IMG/VR virus record: IMGVR_UViG_3300011480_000001
Location: 27,263-91,262 of that record
Strand: one strand, 5' to 3'
DNA length: 64,000 bases
From: a virus
Taxonomy: Duplodnaviria > Caudoviricetes
In this document: positions 4,258-49,858 of the stretch, piece by piece
Position numbering within the stretch: the first letter of the stretch is position 1
Layout: the number at the start of each line of letters is the position of its first letter
Notes under the pieces: model-generated
Seen by the model: the letters and a program-made list of their open reading frames with translations, nothing else
What the model was told of the DNA's origin: nothing
The model's database searches: none
Translations under genes and position numbers: made by a program

Positions 4258-5941
4258 CTATTGTCCTGCACGTTGAAATGGGTTATCAAAGCTTAGTTGA
4301 GAACCTTGAAGCCCTGATAGGAAGTTTGGAATGTTAATTTTCTGAGCTAATGTAATAAATGAATCACTTGAGGCGTCCACTTGGTCATCTTTTACTCTTC
4401 TTGTTCCATCAAAACCTTCAAGTTCTGAGAAATAGGTTTCATTCCAAGGGGCCTCAACGTAGTCAATAAGACCTGCTTGAGCAGCAGCAGCAAAAGGCTG
4501 GAACCTTACCACTTTTGATTTATTAGAGGGCCGCATGCGAGCAGCGAAACCTTCACCCAATAGATCCTTAATCATCATCTGACCAGCAGCTTTACCAGCT
4601 TGTCCTGGCTCTTGTGGAATAATAATCTGAGTTTCCGGGGGATCTGATTTAGCAGTCTCAATAATCTTTTGCATTACTTCGCCAAACCTAGCCCTGAATC
4701 TCACCACATCCACGACTACATACCTCTGATCTTTAGTCTTCGCGATAAGAACACCACAGGTCCAATCGGGGTTGGGCAGGTCATCCGACGGAAGAGAACC
4801 AGCTATATCCCAAGCCCTACAGTAAGATATAATATTTAAATCTACAAAGCTTGTAGCCTTACACCACTCTTTTTTGAAGTAACCGCTTGAAGATTCACGA
4901 ACAAGCCAATTGCCGTCTAAAAGCCTGGACTTTTCTACGCCCTTAAGACCCTTTAACCACGCAACGTACTTTGGGTTAATTCGTTGCACGATTGGGTTAT
5001 CGGTTACGTTGGCACTGATAAAAGTGAAAGAAAGAATATCCTCTAAAAGTACCCCATACTCTTCTGCAATCTCTTCAGGAGAATCACCCCAAACAAAGTC
5101 ACCATCTTGGAAAGTAAAATAACGAAGCAGTCCATCCTTAGTTCTGTCTGGCGTACCATCTTCATGCAGATAAGGTTCTACCCATTTACGTAAAAAATGA
5201 TCATAGGAAGGATTGCACGTAATTTTAAGCTTAGGTTGTACTTCGGGGCAGTTTGGGTTACGCATACGAGACATGATATACTGAATCATATGCTGCGTGA
5301 ATTGCGTGCCCTCATCTACATAGTACAAATTTGCCTCAGCGCCTTGCCAGTCTTCATCGGCATCATCGTTTTCGAAGTGCTTCATGTAGATTTCAGCTTT
5401 GGACTTGAAGAAAACAAATTTCTTATCTTTAGCATACCAACGATATTCGTCTGGTTTATATGCTTTAGAAAATATACGCTTGCACTTAGATAGAAGTCCA
5501 CCTGGACCCATAAGCTGTGGAGTTGTACGTCGAGTCATTACCCCAATAAAGTTGGGAATGTCTGTGTATTGAAGGAAGTCAATGGCTCCGATTTCAGATT
5601 TACCGGAGCCTGCTGCCAATACTGTTATGAAGTTCGCTAAACTTCTCTCAAGTTTCCCTGAGTGTCGGACCAACTCTTAATTCAAAAGAATTCTCTCTGT
5701 TTCGGGAATCGCTTGACCCCTACTCTACTCACTTCCACTTACGTGTGTTTTCGATGGCCTCTACGCACTGTCTTTAAACATTGGCACGGGATTACCCTCA
5801 GCATTGCCTGTTAGGGCTTCCCCGTTTAAGAGAGTTTTAAATGGAGGCGCAGATTTCACCACCATATAGTGTTACATCAGCTTGACTTTGGACGTACATC
5901 AACTGGCGTTGACTACAAGGTCCCGGTAAGTCTTGATTCAT
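4258..5941 (-). CDS. terL: Terminase large subunit, spliced: exon 1 5941-5858 and exon 2 5616-4258 (about 480 aa)
   Basis: Exon 1 MNQDLPGPCSQRQLMYVQSQADVTLYGG joins in frame to AAGSGKS, restoring Walker A GGAAGSGKS. YVDEG Walker B, TCNP, RAWDIA and DDQVDA motifs. AAGGGA RBS upstream of 5941. Confidence 0.93.
5617..5857 (-). ncRNA. Group I self-splicing intron (241 nt, no ORF, IA2-like) in terL
   Basis: 5' exon ends in U and the intron ends in G. IGS GCCUCCAU pairs with exon AUGGUGGU, with U.G at the splice site. CUGC can pair with 3' exon GCAG (P10). P AAACGGGGAAGCCCU, Q GGGUAAUCCCG, P7 GGCCA/UGGUC, P3 CUCUCU/AGAGAG, P8 AAUUC/GAAUU, P9 CUCAGG-GAAA-CUUGAG. Confidence 0.93.
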
Positions 5942-6181: not shown

Positions 6182-6210
6182 AGTATAATGCGAAGTTGCT
6201 AATTTTGCAA
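6182..6210 (-). promoter_or_regulatory. sigma70-like promoter upstream of the terL leader
   Basis: TTGCAA-N17-TATACT. Confidence 0.55.
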
Positions 6211-6234
6211 CCACTTATAACAAATAATTTTAAA

Positions 6235-6609
6235 TTAATTAGCTTCTTCAGAATCTTCAGAGGATTCTTGTCCAACAGCTTTTAGATATTGGCGGATTAG
6301 TAGATCGCGTGAGCGTCCAGTCAAACCTGTGTCTCTACGAACTACGTGTTTCATGTCGTCCCATTCCATGGCCTCAAGTTGTTCTTTAGTGTACACTTCA
6401 AGGATACGTTGGAACTGGAAACCCGGAGTATTTTCCATAAGCTCTTCAGTCTCAAAGTACATGAATGCTTGATGAGGGAAACGCATGAAAGGAACTTTAC
6501 CCTCTTGAAGAACAGCACCTTTATTAGCAAGAGCTACAACGTTGCGCATAAAATCAAAACCAAGACTGTCTTTGGTTCCAGTGACTAGTACAATATATTT
6601 GTTTGACAT
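6235..6609 (-). CDS. Hypothetical protein (124 aa) between terS and terL
   Basis: Likely start MSNKYIV at 6609; the upstream part of the tracked ORF overlaps a structured non-coding segment. Confidence 0.7.
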   Translation of the reverse strand: MSNKYIVLVTGTKDSLGFDFMRNVVALANKGAVLQEGKVPFMRFPHQAFMYFETEELMENTPGFQFQRILEVYTKEQLEAMEWDDMKHVVRRDTGLTGRSRDLLIRQYLKAVGQESSEDSEEAN

Positions 6610-6888
6610 TTTAAATTCCGAAATGATTGAATAAGATATAAATTGCTTTATCGAACACTCTTTATCAAAGTGCTCTGTACAACAATTTAAGAATAGGTGC
6701 TGAAGGCCACTTATCTTCCTGCCAATCAGCCTGCAAGCACGAAAGTCTGCTCGCCTCTCCACAGACCTCGTTTACGTGAAGTCACTTCGGCCACGTTTCC
6801 ACACGGGCATTAGGAATAAGGGCCTCTAGATTGGTTCTAGAGGCAAACTCACTAGGCAAAGTGAGATACCAAGCACGCAGCTTGATAC

Positions 6889-6963
6889 TGGAGGCAAAGT
6901 TCGGAGTCAAACCGAAGTCACGGCGTTACAAAGGCCGGGTAATGATCACTATACGACAATGCC
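6889..6963 (-). tRNA. Degenerate tRNA-Thr(TGT)
   Basis: Cloverleaf ending in encoded CCA; T-arm TTCGG-TTTGACT-CCGAA; anticodon arm CGGC-CTTTGTAAC-GCCG with a C.C mismatch; two U.U mismatches in the acceptor stem. Confidence 0.65.
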
Positions 6964-6971
6964 AAAACTAT

Positions 6972-7385
6972 TTAATCTTTCTTGCTACCATCCAACATCG
7001 TCAAGCTAAACCTCTTGACGGGAACTTCAGGAACAACTTCTTCCTTTTCTCCCTCTTCGTTGTTATCTTCAGCTAACTCTTTCTTAAGAGTATAGCGAGA
7101 TTTCTCTTCGTTCAACACAGCAGCTTGAGTCGTAACAGCCCTCTCGCAAATCCATCGGGCGATTTGAAGTTGGTCTTTGTCTTGAACAATTGGATCACCA
7201 TTCTCGTCTTGCTTTGCATCAAGAACAGCATCAATGATTTCCATTGCTTTAGGAACACGAGCAAGCAGTTCGTTAGCTAATTCTTTTAGCTTTGAACGAG
7301 GAATACGCTTGCCTCTGATCCCTTTTTGATTTCGGTTCTGAGGGTTTGAACTTAATCCTTGTTTGTTTCCGACTGGTGCTGCCAT
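6972..7385 (-). CDS. terS: Terminase small subunit (probable)
   Basis: MAAPVGNKQGLSSNPQNRN N-terminus typical of TerS; located upstream of terL; GAGG RBS. Confidence 0.65.
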   Translation of the reverse strand: MAAPVGNKQGLSSNPQNRNQKGIRGKRIPRSKLKELANELLARVPKAMEIIDAVLDAKQDENGDPIVQDKDQLQIARWICERAVTTQAAVLNEEKSRYTLKKELAEDNNEEGEKEEVVPEVPVKRFSLTMLDGSKKD

Positions 7386-7451
7386 GAAAAATACCTCTTA
7401 TTATTCTTTACTTTCTTTGTAAAAACTACTCAGAGAATAGGCTTTAGAAAG

Positions 7452-7570
7452 AAGTCTATATGAGAGGAGAAAGACACATATAGACTTGGAAGCGGCTATA
7501 CGAAGGAGGAGAGACAACGTACAGCCAATAGGCGTTCAACTACAAACAAGGAGAGAATCTGTAGTTGAAC
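7452..7570 (-). repeat. Three tandem 9-11 bp hairpins with UCUCCU-containing loops
   Basis: Stems 7452-7462/7477-7487, 7494-7502/7518-7526 and 7534-7544/7560-7570. G.U pairs form only on the minus strand. Confidence 0.85.
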
Positions 7571-7601
7571 ATTCACGCATTACTAAGGAGGATTTTACTT
7601 T

Positions 7602-7895
7602 TTAGCGTGAAGAAGACACTCTAATGAGACCATTATTTTCATACTCAGTTTCGTCGTATTCGTGACTGAATAATTTATAATACACTTCATCAGAAAACTG
7701 TTCAGTTTCAGCTAAGCTGTGTGCAACCATATTAGCTCGACCAACATTAGGAAACTCACCAAGATTTTCGCTAGATGTTGACTGAGACGATTGTGTGTAT
7801 TTCGTCACTACATAACGAGTAACTGGTCTTACTTTATACTCAACCTTGGCGTAAGGCTTTTCTTCTGTTACATTTAAATCTTCAATTTCAATCAT
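7602..7895 (-). CDS. Hypothetical protein
   Basis: 97 aa ORF with GGAG RBS. Confidence 0.7.
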   Translation of the reverse strand: MIEIEDLNVTEEKPYAKVEYKVRPVTRYVVTKYTQSSQSTSSENLGEFPNVGRANMVAHSLAETEQFSDEVYYKLFSHEYDETEYENNGLIRVSSSR

Positions 7896-7992
7896 ATTTA
7901 CTTAACTCCACAGAGTTTTTAAATTTAAAATTACAATCCGCAGATTGTGTTATTAGTTTGTAGTCTTTCCCACTGTCATTTAAAACTTAGGT

Positions 7993-8177
7993 ATTACAGA
8001 GGAAGTCGCACCGTTCTGTTAGCTACGCCCTCAAGGGGACTGGGTCCAGAACATATAGCATTTTAAGCTATATCCGCTTCCAACAGAGAGTGTATTCCTC
8101 TGTCCGTCCAATGACTAATTAAAGTCCAGTGCCGCCTAATACACAACGGTGCTCACTGCTGGTCTTACGTCTGTAAT
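7993..8177 (-). ncRNA. Candidate structured ncRNA (about 185 nt)
   Basis: Nested stems ATTACAGA/TCTGTAAT, GCACCGTT/AACGGTGC, ACTGG/CCAGT, ACAGAG/CTCTGT and ATATAGC/GCTATAT; no ORF. Confidence 0.55.
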
Positions 8178-8180
8178 GTT

Positions 8181-8269
8181 TGGCAACCCGTAGAAGTAAT
8201 GATCTCCGTGACGATCCATCCTCATGTTTTACGTCAAAGGCTTAGAAGACCTCTTGAGGGGTACGGGTT
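8181..8269 (-). ncRNA. Atypical tRNA-like RNA with an Arg(TCT) anticodon loop and no D-arm
   Basis: Acceptor AACCCGTA/TACGGGTT followed by GCCA; arm AGAGGT-CTTCTAA-GCCTTT; 4-bp T-like stem GGAG-ATCATTA-CTTC. Confidence 0.65.
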
Positions 8270-8274
8270 ATATG

Positions 8275-8349
8275 TGGTGGGACCAGCAGAAATTGCATCT
8301 GCATATCTCGTCTTATGAGGACGGTTCATTACTTTTATGATATAGTCCC
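8275..8349 (-). tRNA. tRNA with CAT anticodon (Ile2 or Met)
   Basis: GGGACTA/TGGTCCC acceptor with ACCA; D-arm TCAT/ATGA; anticodon loop CTCATAA; T-arm GCAGA-TGCAATT-TCTGC. Confidence 0.85.
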
Positions 8350-8354
8350 GTAAA

Positions 8355-8764
8355 TTCATTGCACCCTAAAGTCATAAAATCAGGAGTTAAGGAATTACCT
8401 ACATTTCTGTATTCTTTAGGACGACTTTACCAGAATGTGACGTATTCTACTCACTTACCGAAGGTCAAAATAAGCTTTCAAACAGAGCGTCTTCACAGAT
8501 AGCTCATTCTGATTTTTATAATTGCCTTTCGGCCAACAGAATTCCTAGCGTCTGCTAGGCTACGGTGTAATTGGTGTAAACCTACACTATCTCTCACCCT
8601 GTGAATTCGTAGAACTACTAAATCGTATCCGCTCTCGTAGTCGTAGCTCGGATTTAGCATCCCTGTTGGAAGGACTGGTCTACTCGCCAACGTATTACGC
8701 CGCGTATGAACGTAATATCCGTGTTGCTCTTTTAAATTCCCGAAGCCTCTTCGGCTTTCCTGTG
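8355..8764 (-). ncRNA. Candidate large structured ncRNA (about 410 nt)
   Basis: Directly behind a consensus promoter; many hairpins; the only ORF (8493-8771) starts inside the -10 box. Confidence 0.55.
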
Positions 8765-8769
8765 CTGAC

Positions 8770-8797
8770 ATTATACACTATTTATTTATATTGTCAA
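8770..8797 (-). promoter_or_regulatory. Consensus sigma70 promoter for the RNA cluster
   Basis: TTGACA-N16-TATAAT. Confidence 0.85.
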
Positions 8798-9006
8798 CTA
8801 TTTTCGTTATAATCTATCAAATTTAGTGCGTATTCCGTAATATCTCCAAACTGATAGGTCTTTACATCAATATATTCAGAGTTATCTGAAATGAAGATAC
8901 ATGCCGTACACATATCTTCTTCCACGTACATACCTTCAAACTCATCATTGCTTTTATATCGAACCATCCCTGTTAAGGGCGTGTCGCAACATTTACATCT
9001 AGACAT
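8794..9006 (-). CDS. Small zinc-finger protein
   Basis: CKCC...CTAC; 70 aa. Confidence 0.65.
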   Translation of the reverse strand: MSRCKCCDTPLTGMVRYKSNDEFEGMYVEEDMCTACIFISDNSEYIDVKTYQFGDITEYALNLIDYNENS

Positions 9007-9754
9007 TTCTGATAAATCCTATTCCTTTTTCATATTGATTTGGGTCTTTACCAGATTTACTACGATTGCATGTTGGACACAAAAGCTGTAAATTATCAGG
9101 CCAGTGACTTCCACCCTTACACAAAGGCATTATGTGGTCAATATGATAACCTGTGTTATCAAACAAGGCATCACAATAGACACACTGACCTTCTTGATTC
9201 ATGTAAAGGAGTTGAATGTCCGCATTACTAAAATGGCCATCAGCTTCTAATTCACGCTTACGTCTAAGCTGGCTGTAAATCTTAGCCCAAGGTTTGTAAT
9301 TTTCTTTGTTTTCTTTTACACATGCAACGCAAAGTCCTGTCTCAGTAGATCGTTTAGAAAGGTGATTGTTTTTACATGGTAATTTAGTATCATAAAAAGG
9401 CTCATCGAGTTCCTTAGCTATCTCTTTGGTTCTTGGTAAAATATCCAAATCTTCTGAACCAAAGGTGTAGTTCGTCAACAAACCTGTCTTTTCTGTATCT
9501 GAAACTTCTGATAAAGTTTCTCTAATAAACCGCAGAGCTTCTTTTGCTTTCTCTTTCTTGGCAACTCTATTTTCAGCCCGTTCTTCCCATTGGAATGAGT
9601 TTTCAGCTTTATGTTCTTCAAGACATTCACAACATTTGTTTGTAGAAACATACCTATCTGAAATATGACCTTTAATACATGCTTCACCAGTAAAATAGAA
9701 AACTAACCCAAGCTCTTTGGCCTCTTTTCTTGTGATTATTTCCACAATTACCAA
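8999..9754 (-). CDS. HNH endonuclease with two N-terminal Zn-binding repeats
   Basis: CVYC...HIDHIMPLCKGGSHWPDNLQLLCPTCNRSK; duplicated (K)EAKEL...C..(G/N)H.S.R...C..C module. Confidence 0.88.
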   Translation of the reverse strand: MVIVEIITRKEAKELGLVFYFTGEACIKGHISDRYVSTNKCCECLEEHKAENSFQWEERAENRVAKKEKAKEALRFIRETLSEVSDTEKTGLLTNYTFGSEDLDILPRTKEIAKELDEPFYDTKLPCKNNHLSKRSTETGLCVACVKENKENYKPWAKIYSQLRRKRELEADGHFSNADIQLLYMNQEGQCVYCDALFDNTGYHIDHIMPLCKGGSHWPDNLQLLCPTCNRSKSGKDPNQYEKGIGFIRNV

Positions 9755-9828
9755 AGCTCTTGTAACTTAAGAGCACATAGTATATCATGAAAGTCTCAAA
9801 TTACAAGTAGCTTGCTAATAAATTTTAA

Positions 9829-11184
9829 CTATTTCTTATCCACCTTACAAAATGTCTTATCACCTAACACTTCTTCCCAAGCTGAATACATAGCCTCACG
9901 AAGATCGTGTTCAGCAGAAGCTTTTACCAAACAACTATCGTGATACACCAAAACTGTATGATCCTTCTGCACCATCGTTTGAATAATGTTCATCATAATA
10001 TCGGAGTCAACCTTTTGAAGAACAACACCTTTATCTTTGTAGAAGCTTTCAGAAATCAAGTCGTTGTGTTCTTTGATTGCAGACAAAATCCTTTTGACAG
10101 GAATTGTGCCTACGACACCTACAAACAGCTTTTCTTCTTGCTCTTTCTTTTTAGCATCATCCCTCACTTTACCGCTCATAGCACCAACAGCTTGTGCTTC
10201 ATCTACAGAGTTGATACCGATCAGTATAGCAAGCTTTGCAAGATTACGCAAAGGATTGTATGGCTTTCCAATCAGCTTTGATTGTTTTTCAATCTCAAAT
10301 TGATCTACCTGCACAAATGACAAGTCTGCATCATACGGATTGAAACCTTCCCCGAATAAATCGTAAACATTCATCCCATCCTTCAATAGCATCTGATAAC
10401 AAATATTAGGATGTATAGCACTGAAATCCAGTTCAACAACAGGTTCACCATCAATTGTGAGATATTCATTACGTAGACGTTGAGGAAGTAATTGAACACC
10501 TCCACCAGCAGCATAGATACGACCAGCTACATGCATTGTATCTAAGAATACACGTTTGTATTCAACAGTTGCAATCTGCTTACCATTGTATTTAATATCT
10601 GCTTCTTTTAAACTTGAGTTATACGTATCCATCTTTTCTCTTGCCTCTTTAATTCCGATTTTACCGCGAGTACCTAGTTCATCTCCCGTTTTACGATTCC
10701 TCACTTGTACTGAATCATCTACGCGGCACTCAGTAAACAAGTCAACAGGGGGAATGGATGACCAAAGGTCTGTAAGCCTCTTTCTGAAAATCACACAAGA
10801 TGAAATCACATACTCAGGGACTCTCTTACCGTTCTCATATCTCCAAGAGTCAACAAATCCTTTATAGATATGGATATACGCCTTCTCTTCCAAGAATTGA
10901 AGGAGAGCTTTAACACCTCTATACCCAATCTTAGCTTTGTTACCCGTGTAATAACCAGGATCTAAGGATACTCTCATTCCTTCTGCTTTGTTATTAATAG
11001 CTCTTGCCATATTAGATACGAACCACTTAACAGCAATGCTCCATTCTCCTTCTGTGTGAGTTAAGAGAGAGTCAGTGATGTGTTGGTAGTAATCAGACTG
11101 ATGGTAGTGTAGATAGGTATTGGAACAGCTTAAGGATATCCCATGTCTATCTAGTGTACTCATATTACTTAGTTCATAAATCAT
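9829..11184 (-). CDS. Family A polymerase-like protein (palm/fingers, no exonuclease domain seen)
   Basis: GRIY...VQLLP; motif A VELDFSAIHP; motif B-like RNLAK; LQKVDS; motif C YHDS. Confidence 0.65.
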   Translation of the reverse strand: MIYELSNMSTLDRHGISLSCSNTYLHYHQSDYYQHITDSLLTHTEGEWSIAVKWFVSNMARAINNKAEGMRVSLDPGYYTGNKAKIGYRGVKALLQFLEEKAYIHIYKGFVDSWRYENGKRVPEYVISSCVIFRKRLTDLWSSIPPVDLFTECRVDDSVQVRNRKTGDELGTRGKIGIKEAREKMDTYNSSLKEADIKYNGKQIATVEYKRVFLDTMHVAGRIYAAGGGVQLLPQRLRNEYLTIDGEPVVELDFSAIHPNICYQMLLKDGMNVYDLFGEGFNPYDADLSFVQVDQFEIEKQSKLIGKPYNPLRNLAKLAILIGINSVDEAQAVGAMSGKVRDDAKKKEQEEKLFVGVVGTIPVKRILSAIKEHNDLISESFYKDKGVVLQKVDSDIMMNIIQTMVQKDHTVLVYHDSCLVKASAEHDLREAMYSAWEEVLGDKTFCKVDKK

Positions 11185-44777: not shown

Positions 44778-46033
44778 TTACAAGGATAGCCTTTCTTGTT
44801 GAAAGTGCCGCACTTATCGCACTCACGCTTCCCGTGCCTTACTAAACACGTCATTAGCTTGTTTAGTTTCTGGTCTATAAATTTAATCAGCATAATAGAA
44901 TTCAGAACCTTGGAGTTCTTTTAAAACCCGAGTACTCCACATCTCCTCATTACCAATCAAGTCAAAACAACGTGAATCTAGAACAAGACATTTGGTCTTA
45001 TGTTGACCAACTTCTAAAATCTTGAGTTTGAATACAACGTTACCACTGCTGCTGTCCACTTGTTCTATAATATCACCGATTTTCATCATTCACCCCAATT
45101 CGTAGGATTCTCATCATCTTGAGCCTCATAAACAACAAACTCATCACCTTGCCAATATCCTAATCCACGTTCCTCAAGGCTGTCAATAGCTTTCAGAAGA
45201 TTTTCGTAAGCTGAATAGGAAACGTATTGCCCAAACTCCTCTTCAACACGAATGACAGAAGCGTTCCCCCATTCCTCAGATTGTGCTTTGAAGTTGTAGC
45301 GTTTAGGGTTGTTCATTATTTCCAACCCTTGTACTTAGCAAATTCGGATAACCACACACCGGACGGGATGCCTAACAGGAAGCCCATAAACAATCCAACA
45401 GCAAGAAGAATATCACCTTCTGTCATAATCAATCTCTCCCTAAATGTTTATCATTTGTTGAGCACATAATACATAGAACCATGATTGGATACAAGAGAAA
45501 ACAAAAGATCAGAAACACTTAATCCTCCTTCCAGTATCGAAGTATGTAAGCATCTTCATTAGTTAAAAAGCTAATGATTTCATATTTAATTCCTGGGAGA
45601 TTATAAACATCTGAACAACCCCAAGTAGTATCAAACTCATTTTTAAGCCATTCAGTTTCTCTCGCTTCTCTACAACGGAATTGCAGGAATTTACGAAGAT
45701 TATCTGTTAGCTCTGATTCCTCTACTTCAATCCACATTACCTAGTTCTCCGGATTCTGTTCATTCCAATCTTTAATGTATTTCTCAGGATTATCAATCCA
45801 ATGATGCACAAGAGAATCTTCAAGAAGCTTCAGCCAACGGTCTGTACGAGCTTCTGCCTTATCAAAGGCTTCTAGTTCAGCTTGTGCTGCTAGAATTTTC
45901 TTTTCAAGTTTCTTCCTCTTAGCTTCAGGACCACCATTCAATTGACGGTTGAAAGTAATCATTTCTAGTTCATCACGACGATCAAGTTCGTGACAGCGGA
46001 GTGGACAACTACTGAACATTATTTCTTCTCCTA

Positions 46034-46471
46034 TTATACATATATCTCTTTTATACTCATCCCTTTGGTGAATAGCCTTCCTTGATGTACTGTAGTGCAA
46101 CGCCAAAACCTTGTCAAGATAATTTTAAGATTTTCTTCTAGCTCTGGAGTCAAGGAACCCCTGTAATCCCCTTCCCAACCTAGGAAAGAGTATCCAAAGA
46201 GTGACGCCCTTCGCTGTAGTATTAATTCCGCCTGCCAATCTTCCCAATATACAGCTTTCGCGCAACCACAAGGTTTCATTCCTTTAAGATACTGCCTCTC
46301 TGTTGTTTGGAATAAACAAGTTCTATATAACTCTTTATCATTACAATTTGAACATGATACAACTAATTGATTTCTATAGTTCTCTCTAAAACTACCAATA
46401 ACTTTTAAATGAAGGTTTGTATCTGTTTCATAATTATTTAATGTGTCTGTACTGCCGTAATATATTTTCAT
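46034..46471 (-). pseudogene. Truncated homing-endonuclease-associated Zn-domain gene
   Basis: CSNC...PCGC..GYSFLGWEGDY N-terminal module, then runs into a promoter (46089-46117) and the next gene; no nuclease domain seen. Confidence 0.45.
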
Positions 46472-46599
46472 GTCTAACTTTACTAAAAGATAATAATGTT
46501 TATATAACTCCTAAATCAGTTCAGGAAGATACTGGGTAGAGCTACCCTATACAATCCCAAACAGTTAAAAGAAAAGATACTAGATAATATCTTGTTCCT

Positions 46600-46947
46600 T
46601 TGTCAACCCTTCGGCTAACACTGCATAAGAGATCGTATAGGCTCATACCCGACCTTCCCTATCCTATGGAAATCCTCTACAATAGAGGCTCCTAAATTCA
46701 GACGAGGTTAGATGCTTGCAATGTAGGCAAGCCACAAGACACCATAGGAGAATGCCTTGCGCTGGGGAACAGATCATGGTAAGCTGCTGTTCCTATCTGT
46801 CATTCCCTCCTTACACGAGGGCCAGTACACCGATTTCAGATTTCGAGCTACGGTTGTGTCTAGTACCATTCCTTTTACACACATCTACATAAGGCCAAGC
46901 GTTGTAGTCCCGACAAACCCTATGCACTACGCCATAAAACAACGTAG
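46600..46947 (-). ncRNA. Candidate large structured ncRNA (about 350 nt)
   Basis: Promoter TTGTAT-N16 with TGn-TAGAAT (46981-46954); closing stem TGCATAGGG/TCTTATGCA; internal stems; G.U pairs favour the minus strand. Confidence 0.6.
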
Positions 46948-47075
46948 GCATCTATTCTATCACGAATCACCTAGAATACAAGAGAGAAATACTCTTTTTA
47001 TTCAGCCTTTAGGAGATAGATTCTCTCTTATTTACACAACCTATCAACCCTACAACATCCTATTGAAAATCTTAA

Positions 47076-47104
47076 TTGGCTTCCTAAGCCAAGAGGTGTA
47101 GAAT
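47076..47104 (+). promoter_or_regulatory. sigma70 promoter for the replication arm
   Basis: TTGGCT-N17-TAGAAT. Confidence 0.6.
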
Positions 47105-47138
47105 AGAACGTATCAAAAACACAAATGGAGATACACAG

Positions 47139-47561
47139 ATGGGAATGTACACTGAAATTTATGTAAAACTGTCCTTGAAAGACGACACACCACAGGAAGT
47201 CATTGAAATCCTTAAGCATATGATGGGACAAGATGCTGAAATTCCTAATGGGAAGCTTCCAGAACATGAACTGTTCACGAAAGGTCGTTGGAAATTTATG
47301 CTGCGCTGTTCGTCCTATTATCACATTCCATCTTGTGTAGGCAAGCTCTGGTATGATGAAATTGCAAAGCAGTGGTTCTTGGTGAATCGTAGTGACTTGA
47401 AGAATTATGAAGGTGAGATTGAATCTTTCTTTGATTGGATTTATCCTTATGCTGAGCAGGACTATGACAAACAGTTCCTTGGTTATGAATTGTATGAAGA
47501 AGAGCAAGAGCCAACAATGTACTACAAGACCGATAACGGATTGCAGATCAAAATGCCTTGA
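47139..47561 (+). CDS. Hypothetical protein
   Basis: GGAG RBS; MGMYTE N-terminus common in phage proteins. Confidence 0.75.
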   Translation: MGMYTEIYVKLSLKDDTPQEVIEILKHMMGQDAEIPNGKLPEHELFTKGRWKFMLRCSSYYHIPSCVGKLWYDEIAKQWFLVNRSDLKNYEGEIESFFDWIYPYAEQDYDKQFLGYELYEEEQEPTMYYKTDNGLQIKMP

Positions 47562-49858
47562 TTTATAGGCTTTTACACCCCAAATAATCGTTTTAACACA
47601 CAAGACATACATAGGTTGCGCTTAGAGAAGAAACGCGCTAGAATGTGTGAAAAACGTATAGAAAAGGAGGTTTAAAGTGAGCTATCTAGAAATGAGTGAA
47701 GAAGAAATCCACAATCTTGTTGAACGTGGTGGATTGGATGATGATATGTTTTTTAGTCTACACGAAGAGGCGATTAATGCACTGAACAAGACTGAGGCAG
47801 CTTACAATGCAGTCATCAGCTACATGCTCGGTAAAGGCTATACAGAAGAACCTCTTGAATTTCTACGTTGCTGGAATGAAGGTAATTTTGATGCTTTGCG
47901 TGAAGAGTGGCCCGATGCACCAAAAGAAATTTACTAAGCTGACCCTTTGTACAAAGGTGAATAAGGAGAATTAAGATGAGTGTTTTAACCTACCAACCAA
48001 GCCCAGAGCTTGGGGAAGTGAAAGTCGGAGATATGGTCAGCACACACGATAGTCAAGGGTTCTTGATGGAAATGGTTCGTGTGACTAAAGTGGCTAAGCG
48101 TTACATTAAGACAGAATGTGGTCGTCAGTGGACTGTTGATTATGGCGAGTGGATTGCTTGCTTCCATGGCAACAAACCGGAGAGCTATCCATTCCCAAGC
48201 ATTCGTAAAGTATAAAGGAGATAAACGATGAGTAAAATTACACTGTTGTACTTCAAGCCTAGTGGTAAATGGGGCTACGAAGGGACCTTGGAATTCTCTG
48301 ATGAGGGGAATATGTATGAATTGCAAGATTTGGTTAAGTCGTTGGATGACCAACGTAAACTTCCCGGTCTTGCTTCTGGTTCGTGGGATGGTCCAATCTA
48401 CATTGATTCTTCTTTACATCCCAAAGGCTTTCCACAATTGATTCTGTGAACGCTTGACACAGACCACAGAATGGTGTTTAATAAGCTCTAACGGAACGAA
48501 TCAGGAAGCAGCCTCATGAGACACGAAATAGCTATCGACAACATCACTCTGACCTGTGACATTCATAGCTACATCAAGAAGTCACCAGATTTCAATTCGT
48601 GGGAGTCAGATGTTGATTACTACGGGCATGAAGAGCTAGAATTTACTGTTGAAAGTGCTCTTGAGCTTGACGAAGACGGAATCCTCTATGACCTATCTTC
48701 GACTGAGATTGACAAGTTGATGTCTGATGAATGGTTTGTGAAGCTTGTTGAGAAAGAGTTGATTAAAATTATTGAAGCTGAAAAGGAGAGTGAAGAATGA
48801 ATAAAGAAGAAATGCTTAAGAAGCTAAAAGTGTCTGTGAAGAGCAGTGCAGAAAAAGCCCGAATGAATGCAGGCTATGCCGGTTCATGGGGTGATGGTGG
48901 AGCACATGAAATGGAGAAAAAGCTTGAAGCTTTCCTTGATGGTTATGAATTCGCTTTGACTGGTAAAACTAAAGTGTATGCTAAATTCTTCGAAGAGTTG
49001 GACAAAGAACAAGATCCTGATTATCAGAAGTACCTTGAACTGAAAGGGAAGTTTGGAGAATGATGAAAATTGTAGATTGGTTCTTCAATAATTGGTGGGG
49101 TGGTGTTATTCTAGCTGCTCTTGTATGCACAACAAGCGACATTATTATGTTTGGTGATAAAGTGGAGTTTGCTAACACATACATCGAAGGCATTAAGCTT
49201 TGTGAGGAAGATAGTAAGTCACAATGTCTGTTGATGGTGGTGCCGATGGGCACCCTTAAAGGAGTTGAATGATGAGTGAAGTAAAAATTAATGTAAAACG
49301 CCTAAAACAACTTGAGCGAGCAGCGTCAAAACTAAGCGCACTGGAAGCTGGAGGGGTTGATAATTGGGAATGGTACGGAGAGAGCCTTAAAGAATGGAAC
49401 CGAGAAAATCAACTTGAGGAAATTCTAGAAGAGGTTGTACAAAATATTCATGATATTATGGTAGATGGTGTAGATTATGATTTCCCTGCGGGACGTGAGG
49501 CTGGTATTAGTCTCAACCTAAATGAAGAAGGTGAGTCAGCAATTAAAAGGATTTTCTTGAAACTCGTTGAAGAGTATGTTGAACTTATGGAAGATAAAGA
49601 ATGACATTCAAAGTAAACATCGAGAATGGCACAAGTCTTTACACAACAGATGAGCTTATTTCCTATGGGCTTTCTGGCTGCCTTTATGCTGGAGACACAG
49701 ATTTGACAGCATTTGTCGAACAGATAGTGTCACATTATGAAACTAAGATTGAGCAAGCAAGCGGATCACGCTATATTGATGATGCTGAGGAAGAAGGTTA
49801 TCAACGCGGGCGTAGTGAATTGCTAGATGAGATTAAGAATTATTTGGAGAATATTTAA

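Follow-up and report, generated by a model that had tools for sequence, protein, structure and literature searches.

A candidate family of large pseudoknotted phage RNAs with duplicated same-sense motifs and exchangeable homing endonuclease neighbors

The DNA stretch analyzed here, referred to as the window, comprises 64 kb and forms the end of a phage record of 91,262 bp that has direct terminal repeats. The DNA polymerase of this phage shares 56-58% identity with those of the Pseudomonas phages phiPMW and SYP and about 50% with its counterparts in Acinetobacter phages. An RNA gene of about 440 nt was located on the minus strand at ~46947-46508, the point of divergence between a leftward block of small genes and a rightward block leading toward primase and polymerase; all RNA features given below lie on this strand. 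The G+C content of the region 46500-46950 is 0.43-0.48 as compared to ~0.36-0.39 in its surroundings. A small ORF in the rightward arm (47976-48215, plus strand) showed a weak match to a phage ProQ C-terminal-like domain (E 0.0046) and is possibly an RNA chaperone gene near the RNA gene. ARAGORN detected neither tRNA nor tmRNA genes in the window.

Eleven further distinct copies of the element were identified, which are 72-83% identical to the window over ~420 nt and bring the total to 12 (window, L040, L046, L047, L048, L049, L052, L054, L055, L059, L060, and L061). The first relative was recognized by an exact 28-mer match in an otherwise dissimilar contig; more copies were obtained with conserved blocks as search patterns against viral and metagenome collections, and three further ones from other archives with an antisense plus-strand ORF as protein query. 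The copies reside in uncultured phage contigs and in one integrase-bearing island, and their flanking DNA is otherwise dissimilar. Each of the seven genome records searched (G000-G006) contains a single copy. No DNA match to window 46000-47600 was found in phage isolate genomes, and an exact-pattern search of GTDB genomes gave no match. Furthermore, none of 36 loci with the neighboring rightward gene (phrog_4334) contained the RNA or DNA resembling 46000-47140; the element is therefore not simply part of a conserved intergenic region. Extra pattern scanning of sequence collections returned the known copies only, plus L058, which was discarded as a chance match in high-GC coding DNA. A candidate from the protein search, P0002, was an unrelated repetitive protein. 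With 12 copies, the RNA family is rare in current databases.

In L060, an ENA scaffold of 91,105 bp, the RNA lies beside a PhoH/ClpP block, whereas in the window the PhoH/ClpP genes are 30 kb away; thus, the position of the element is not kept even among phages of similar size. In L054 (metagenome contig Ga0213820_1000049, 138 kb) the RNA is located within 6205-10468 between a tyrosine integrase gene (DUF6538 and Phage_integrase) and a DUF5906/VapE primase-type gene, and a tRNA-Ser is found nearby at 492-581. This locus looks like an integrative satellite-like island.

The sequence-only reading of this DNA, which had preceded our analysis, proposed a structured ncRNA of about 350 nt with its limit at 46600. 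Comparison among the copies revealed a sharp onset of homology at 46925 and its end at ~46508. A structured RNA on the minus strand is thus borne out by the comparative evidence, but its length is ~440 nt and its 3' end lies about 90 nt past 46600. The MFE z-score was -1.54 for the minus strand and 0 for the plus strand, which is weak support if thermodynamics is taken alone; the structured RNA was accepted because the comparative evidence is decisive and folding energy by itself says little.

A structure model was built from stacks of covarying columns in combination with RNAalifold, and base pairs were counted on tool-made alignments. In the 98-pair model, 96.3% of 1168 cells were paired across 12 sequences; smaller alignments gave 95.6% with 9 and 96.5% with 10 sequences. 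As controls with 12 sequences, shuffled partners left 81.0% of the cells paired and partners slid by 1-3 columns left 35-44%. Both sides had changed in 59 of the 98 pairs, and none of 500 shuffles reached any of the measures. The model was derived from the first nine of the twelve sequences, so that the slid control is biased in its favor; hence, L059, which was found after the model had been fixed, served as held-out test. This copy kept 87 of the 98 pairs, 28 of them via double changes relative to the window. Many G-U pairs fit the minus strand only. Furthermore, about 130 bases in loops and junctions have remained nearly invariant, in contrast to the drifting helices. The homolog search and covariation analysis suggested as a check by the sequence-only reading therefore turned out in favor of an RNA, with 12 copies and strong covariation.

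According to the model, the RNA would fold into two linked domains held by a loop-loop kiss and two pseudoknots. The 5' domain is predicted to consist of five hairpins joined by the loop-loop kiss and one pseudoknot, the 3' domain of a 135-nt branched arm, and the second pseudoknot would link both domains. The predicted transcript begins with a non-conserved 5' leader containing a small hairpin (CUACG...CGUAG, 46927-46947); the leader is variable among copies in both sequence and length and is almost absent from L060. Helix 1 follows at 46888-46924 (CAUAGGGUU/GGCCUUAUG) with an almost invariant 19-nt loop, UGUCGGGACUACAACGCUU; seven of its nine pairs are double-changed and it is 100% paired in the 12 sequences. 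A helix UGCAUAGGG/UCUUAUGCA had been thought to close the ends of the molecule; this pairing had to be abandoned, its 5' strand being engaged instead with CCUUAUG in the local hairpin of helix 1 (9 bp, 7 pairs covary). Positions 46829-46881 are taken up by helices 2 and 3, the loops of which are conserved. The loop of helix 3 carries copy 1 of the motif GUAGCUC (46845-46851) and the sequence AUCUG, which forms a pseudoknot with CAGAU at 46795-46799; in L060, the two strands read AUCCG and CGGAU. Hairpins H4 (CCCUC/GAGGG) and H5 (GGAACAG/CUGUUCC) are located at 46766-46821, with three of five and seven of seven pairs covarying, respectively. Their loops kiss each other, joining 46809-46813 to 46780-46784 in the window, through a pairing that differs by copy: GUAAG/CUUAC, GCAAG/CUUGC, GUAGGU/ACCUAC, UUGCAG/CUGCAA, or GUAUG/CAUAC.

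Hairpin H6 (CGCAAGGC/GUCUUGUG) and then H8 (GCUUGC/GCAAGC) extend over 46714-46761; six of eight and six of six pairs covary. The H6 loop CCUAUG forms the second pseudoknot with CAUAGG at 46663-46668, 70 nt downstream, and four of these six pairs covary. Compensatory changes support all four of the internal pairings listed by the sequence-only reading, CCCUC/GAGGG, GGAACAG/CUGUUCC, CCUAUGG/CCAUAGG, and GCUUGC/GCAAGC. At 46689-46713 a 19-nt single-stranded block, AUCUAACCUCGUCUGAAUU, and a variable octamer, UUUAGGAG, constitute repeat M1; the block is identical in 10 of the 12 copies and varies in L059 and L060. Next, at 46662-46688, come the variable hairpin H9 (CCUCUA-UUG-UAGAGG) and the CAUAGG strand of the second pseudoknot. 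This hairpin had also been noticed before, and every copy has a differing hairpin at that position, some with GAAA or UUCG loops, which aligns poorly across copies. The branched 135-nt arm (46524-46658) contains the hairpin GUUAGCC-GAAG-GGUUGAC, a variable sub-hairpin, and copy 2 of GUAGCUC (46539-46545); its G-U pairs are compatible with the minus strand only, and L060 turns GAG/CUC into GAC/GUC. The stem UGUUAGCC-GAAG-GGUUGACA, recognized from the sequence beforehand, is a covarying hairpin within this arm. In total, compensatory changes support six of the seven helices proposed by the sequence-only reading, H9 included. In the alignment of copies, the last conserved bases are the 3' tail UGAACUGAUU and a second UUUAGGAG, which make up repeat M2 (46508-46523).

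An extended -10 promoter, as proposed earlier, is present in the sequence at 46981-46954 (TTGTAT-16-TGATAGAAT); it was missing from a promoter scan because its -35 hexamer matches at 3/6 positions only. At the corresponding place, other copies carry stronger promoters of sigma-70-like type (TTGACT-17-TACAAT, TTGCAA-18-TATAGT, and TTGACA-17-TATATT), and an alternative promoter-like site, TTGATA-16-GAGAAT, lies farther upstream of the window RNA at 47047-47020. Transcription would start near 46947. In the window and in four other copies, scanning of the element and of the DNA behind it revealed nothing resembling a terminator. What had been taken as a terminator, a hairpin plus U-tract near 46570, is the internal, covarying, variable sub-hairpin of the arm (46524-46658), in which the U-run pairs with an A-rich strand. 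We infer the promoter, the RNA ends, and read-through from the sequence.

A promoter-like arrangement, TTGACA-17/18-TAnnnT, is present inside the element in the window, L040, L052, and L055. An internal promoter was rejected as a family feature because about half of the copies lack the -10 hexamer; TTGACA is conserved since it is part of the covarying arm hairpin and held by base pairing. Just behind the RNA, an A+T-rich near-palindrome, TACTTATAAGTA, and variants thereof were observed in L040 (6935-6960), L048 (~4500-4520), and L055 (3' of M2). This sequence may serve as operator, nuclease site, or promoter element.

The ORF at 46471-46034 (minus strand) starts 36 nt behind the RNA and is a remnant of a T5orf172-type homing endonuclease with the DNA-binding CapR domain only (Pfam CapR 1.2e-10; phrog_681, N-terminal part, 101-195 of 576), in agreement with the endonuclease-like remnant described from the sequence alone. 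Behind the CapR fragment, at 45519-46106 (minus strand), two ORFs of 121 and 72 aa without family were noted, the 121-aa ORF overlapping the end of the 145-aa ORF; both may be decayed remains of the same endonuclease gene. No relatives of the CapR-type ORF were found in viral contigs. A 457-aa protein of L002 was considered as the intact form of the remnant and showed no real similarity.

Examination of the gene neighborhoods revealed homing-endonuclease genes behind the RNA, at a distance of 36-82 nt, in six copies and none in the other six; at least three families are represented. T5orf172/MUG113 genes are present in L040 and L052, a phrog_314 (GIY-YIG-like) homing endonuclease in L047 and a fragment of the same in L048, and an endonuclease-VII-like gene (phrog_1035) in L046; no nuclease follows the RNA in L049/L061, L055, L054, L059, and L060. 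The gap between RNA and nuclease gene is 36-43 nt in four copies and 82 nt in one. In four copies (window, L046, L052, L040), nuclease genes of three unrelated families begin 36-43 nt behind the last conserved base, which suggests one preferred insertion point. Pairing of the RNA with the ribosome-binding regions of five nuclease genes was no better than with shuffled sequences in five of five nuclease-bearing copies. The genes behind the RNA are always co-directional with it and vary in identity, and no protein family was consistently linked to the RNA among the element-bearing loci. A small protein encoded 1.2-2.5 kb downstream of the RNA (window 45086-45325, minus strand; L046; L048) represents the only ORF family common to three element loci.

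The sequence-only reading had considered the nuclease as possibly once partnered with the RNA and had recommended a survey of gene neighborhoods. The partnership is not supported by this survey: three nuclease kinds occur across the copies, 6 of 12 copies have none, and no protein gene is consistently linked to the RNA. Judged from these neighborhoods, the nuclease is probably a hitch-hiker. The homing-endonuclease genes would be interchangeable selfish tenants, settled 36-82 nt behind DNA that is unusually conserved among co-infecting phages, and the nuclease gene in the window would have decayed since settling.

Two pairs of same-sense repeats were found in the RNA. Both M1 (46689-46701) and M2 (46508-46519) consist of CUGA(A)UU followed by a variable element X, for which five variants occur: UAGGAG, AGGAAG, GGAAUG, GGGAUG, and GGGAAG. 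The GGA core is kept in every variant. The octamers of M1 and M2 are identical within 11 of the 12 RNAs and one base apart in the twelfth, and none of 100,000 permutations was as good. The second pair is GUAGCUC, with one copy in the helix 3 loop and the other on the 3' side of the arm, where its partner UGAGCC is visible. In L060 both copies read GUAGGUC and the arm partner has changed from UGAGCC to CGACCC, a co-change known from this one sequence. The repeat motif was also considered as a genome-wide promoter or operator; it has no other copy in the window.

A covarying antisense partner of X was searched for in the 5' leader, the 3' flank, and the arm, and by column-wise covariation, and none was found. 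Complementarity of the 5' leader to X is confined to four of nine copies, L060 having almost no leader, and the 3' flank does not fit as partner. The arm segment YUCUAAGCAG is complementary to X in all copies without tracking the type (-9.3 kcal/mol with its own X and -8.7 kcal/mol with others), and the invariant CUUCCUGAA before M2 is likewise complementary to all X variants and does not track the variant. The exact complement of the window X octamer, CTCCTAAA, occurs at 47008-47015 on the minus strand, 85 nt upstream of the conserved RNA, where it follows the promoter-like site at 47047-47020; similar leader complements were seen in L040, L049, and L054 only. That the two copies of a repeat are the same rather than complementary would be expected if both pair in turn with one partner.

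It is very probable, on comparative grounds, that the element specifies a real, strand-specific, and functional structured RNA. The best explanation as a whole, which we favor with moderate confidence, is a self-contained RNA gene with the nuclease as tenant and the RNA as switch or leader; the switch or leader mechanism itself is a tentative proposal. A sigma-70-type early promoter would give rise to a non-coding RNA of ~440 nt that acts as RNA and is neither a coding-gene remnant nor a partner of the nuclease; transcription is presumably early. No terminator was found behind the RNA and it always heads a co-directional block; therefore, it would also be the leader of whatever lies downstream, with read-through from the RNA into the downstream genes. 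The CUGA(A)UU+X pair and the GUAGCUC pair would be rival strands competing for one complementary partner each, so that the RNA could act as a conformational switch on its own transcript, perhaps also in trans. A bolder version of this proposal, which we consider unlikely as it stands, would make the family a new large phage RNA class operating by strand competition. Here, a duplicated 'address' (CUGA(A)UU+X) and the GUAGCUC segments would alternate on single partners, flip the 440-nt fold, and set read-through into the early operon or build RNA-only oligomers; the X variants would then be specificity types, and related phages and the satellite-like island would share an immunity or compatibility code made of RNA only.

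Several other explanations were considered. The conservation might stem from a small plus-strand protein or from DNA sites such as nuclease targets or operators instead of an RNA. The ORF 46757-47101 (plus strand), which the sequence-only reading had left as a possible conserved translated gene, is open over 45-138 codons in the copies checked, and conserved DNA would be a plausible nuclease target; however, the ORF is open by accident, only because the sequence is conserved, and is not a gene. Variable sites per codon position (0.54/0.50/0.42) show no third-position excess or other codon periodicity, start and stop differ among copies, no Pfam or PHROG family matched, and the only 'relatives' obtained from databases were the corresponding antisense ORFs of further copies of the element. 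Moreover, 59 compensated pairs and minus-specific G-U pairs are impossible from protein or duplex-DNA constraints, and the motifs of the element were found nowhere else in the window; this explanation is extremely improbable. The RNA might also be a leader of the nuclease gene whose fold keeps synthesis low until a promoter inside the leader gives a shorter transcript, as in T-even hairpins. The nuclease genes close behind half of the copies and the internal TTGACA-17/18-TAnnnT in four copies would fit, but the other half has no nuclease to control, the ribosome-binding regions do not pair with the element better than shuffles, TTGACA is explained by pairing with its -10 often missing, and 440 nt with tertiary contacts are far beyond the need of such control. 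We regard a nuclease leader as improbable. In its size, its pseudoknotted core, and its proximity to homing endonucleases, the element is reminiscent of group I introns, and one internal guide could read identical sequences at two sites. A self-processing ribozyme or degenerate self-splicing intron could cut or join behind the X element of M1 and that of M2, where the last base is usually G, and thereby free the 3' arm or make the 5' end of a downstream mRNA. This is nevertheless very improbable: the Rfam group I and II models gave no match with E values up to 10 allowed, an internal guide sequence was not detected, and the stretch between M1 and M2 is anchored to the 5' domain by a pseudoknot and hence is not a separable insert. 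The element also does not interrupt a host gene; a promoter (in several copies also a divergent gene) lies upstream, no ORF is split, and the UvrD-type helicase downstream in L040 is intact and begins at its own N-terminus.

The main rival is a decoy or sequestering RNA acting in trans, which would be produced early in large amounts and would bind or mimic a conserved host macromolecule such as a defense sensor, RNA polymerase, RNA chaperone, or ribonuclease, with the repeat pairs as twin sites for a dimeric factor. The nearly invariant loop and junction bases within drifting helices fit binding of a host factor at least as well as they fit a switch. In favor of such a role are also the promoter of the RNA itself and its place at the front of early arms, its occurrence in differing genomic contexts including the integrase/primase island, the lack of a linked protein gene among the loci compared, and the GGA core kept by all X variants. 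However, a host factor leaves unexplained why X has five forms that are identical within each RNA, and no terminator defines a discrete RNA. A decoy is possible although doubtful in our view; decoy and switch are not mutually exclusive.

Returning to the self-contained RNA gene, its relation to known RNA classes was analyzed. None of the 4227 Rfam 15 models matched anywhere in the window at the gathering score; with E values up to 10 allowed, the window region gave snoRNA-type noise only, and the element in six other copies gave no match. The sequence-only reading had called the element an early ncRNA belonging to no recognizable class. This description has held up, as Rfam contains no credible match, covariation is strong, and the RNA has its own promoter and is situated at the head of the leftward early arm. 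A literature search yielded neither an account of this fold nor one of an RNA associated with T5orf172-type genes. We would rate the family as a new RNA class on this basis. Bacterial and phage RNAs of such size and tertiary structure are few, namely ribozymes, tmRNA, OLE, GOLLD, ROOL, and HEARO, and to our knowledge every understood RNA of that kind has revealed an unusual mechanism. The family offers a ready structural model that passed a held-out test, a clear and cheap genetic handle in its concerted same-sense repeats, and natural variation comprising five repeat types, copies with and without nuclease neighbor, and occurrence in phages and in an integrative island.

Group I introns carrying homing endonuclease genes are likewise pseudoknotted phage RNAs of a few hundred nucleotides with interchangeable endonuclease genes. 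In contrast, the RNA described here lacks exons and a host gene, is preceded by a promoter of its own, and is followed by the nuclease gene instead of containing it in a loop. For the group I catalytic core (P3-P9, guanosine-binding P7), no Intron_gpI match was obtained at E up to 10, and the order of helices differs. A group II intron (domain V/VI, reverse transcriptase) matched neither in Rfam nor through a reverse-transcriptase domain in the neighbors scanned. HEARO/omega RNA of IscB-TnpB gave no Rfam match either, and the neighbors are T5orf172, CapR, GIY-YIG-like, or endonuclease-VII-like genes, or none. The leader hairpins of T-even nuclease genes resemble the present case as structured RNA ahead of nuclease genes, but here the nuclease is absent from half of the copies and the ribosome-binding site is not paired. 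In the stable-RNA regions of T-even phages and T5, free-standing homing endonucleases are found next to conserved RNA genes (SegB in T4; a T5orf172-type enzyme in the T5 tRNA region). As in these clusters, nuclease genes of several families adjoin a conserved RNA gene without functional tie; the difference is that the RNA is a single pseudoknotted molecule of ~440 nt from an uncatalogued family and not a tRNA or known stable RNA. A recurring pair of folded RNA and homing endonuclease in phages can thus be mere tenancy beside conserved DNA, which matters when RNA-nuclease pairs are proposed as RNA-guided systems.

The P4 CI RNA pairs with seqA and seqC, same-sense targets on either side of it, in the leader of a phage satellite (PMC4825925), and so sets a precedent for like sequences that pair with one partner. 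The element shares with P4 CI RNA and P1/P7 c4 RNA (Rfam C4, RF01695) the promoter-proximal place in an untranslated leader at the head of an operon and two same-sense sequences flanking a segment able to pair with both; furthermore, the L054 RNA lies between integrase and primase-type gene, the place of the RNA-based immunity leader in P4. Unlike these RNAs, it is several times larger, has no RF01695 match, and is found mostly in lytic-looking phages, and the segment between its repeats is complementary in all copies and does not track the repeat type. In GOLLD and ROOL, prominent kissing loops build homo-oligomers (10.1101/2024.12.08.627333). Large size, intricate folding, and kissing loops are common to GOLLD, ROOL, OLE, and the present RNA, and GOLLD and ROOL are often phage-borne; the present RNA is smaller, has no sequence or structure match to them, and is not located near tRNA genes, of which the window has none. 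By analogy, the RNA would therefore resemble seg-type stable-RNA genes in its genomic logic, the P4 and P1 leaders in its position and repeats, and the large orphan RNAs in its size and tertiary complexity.
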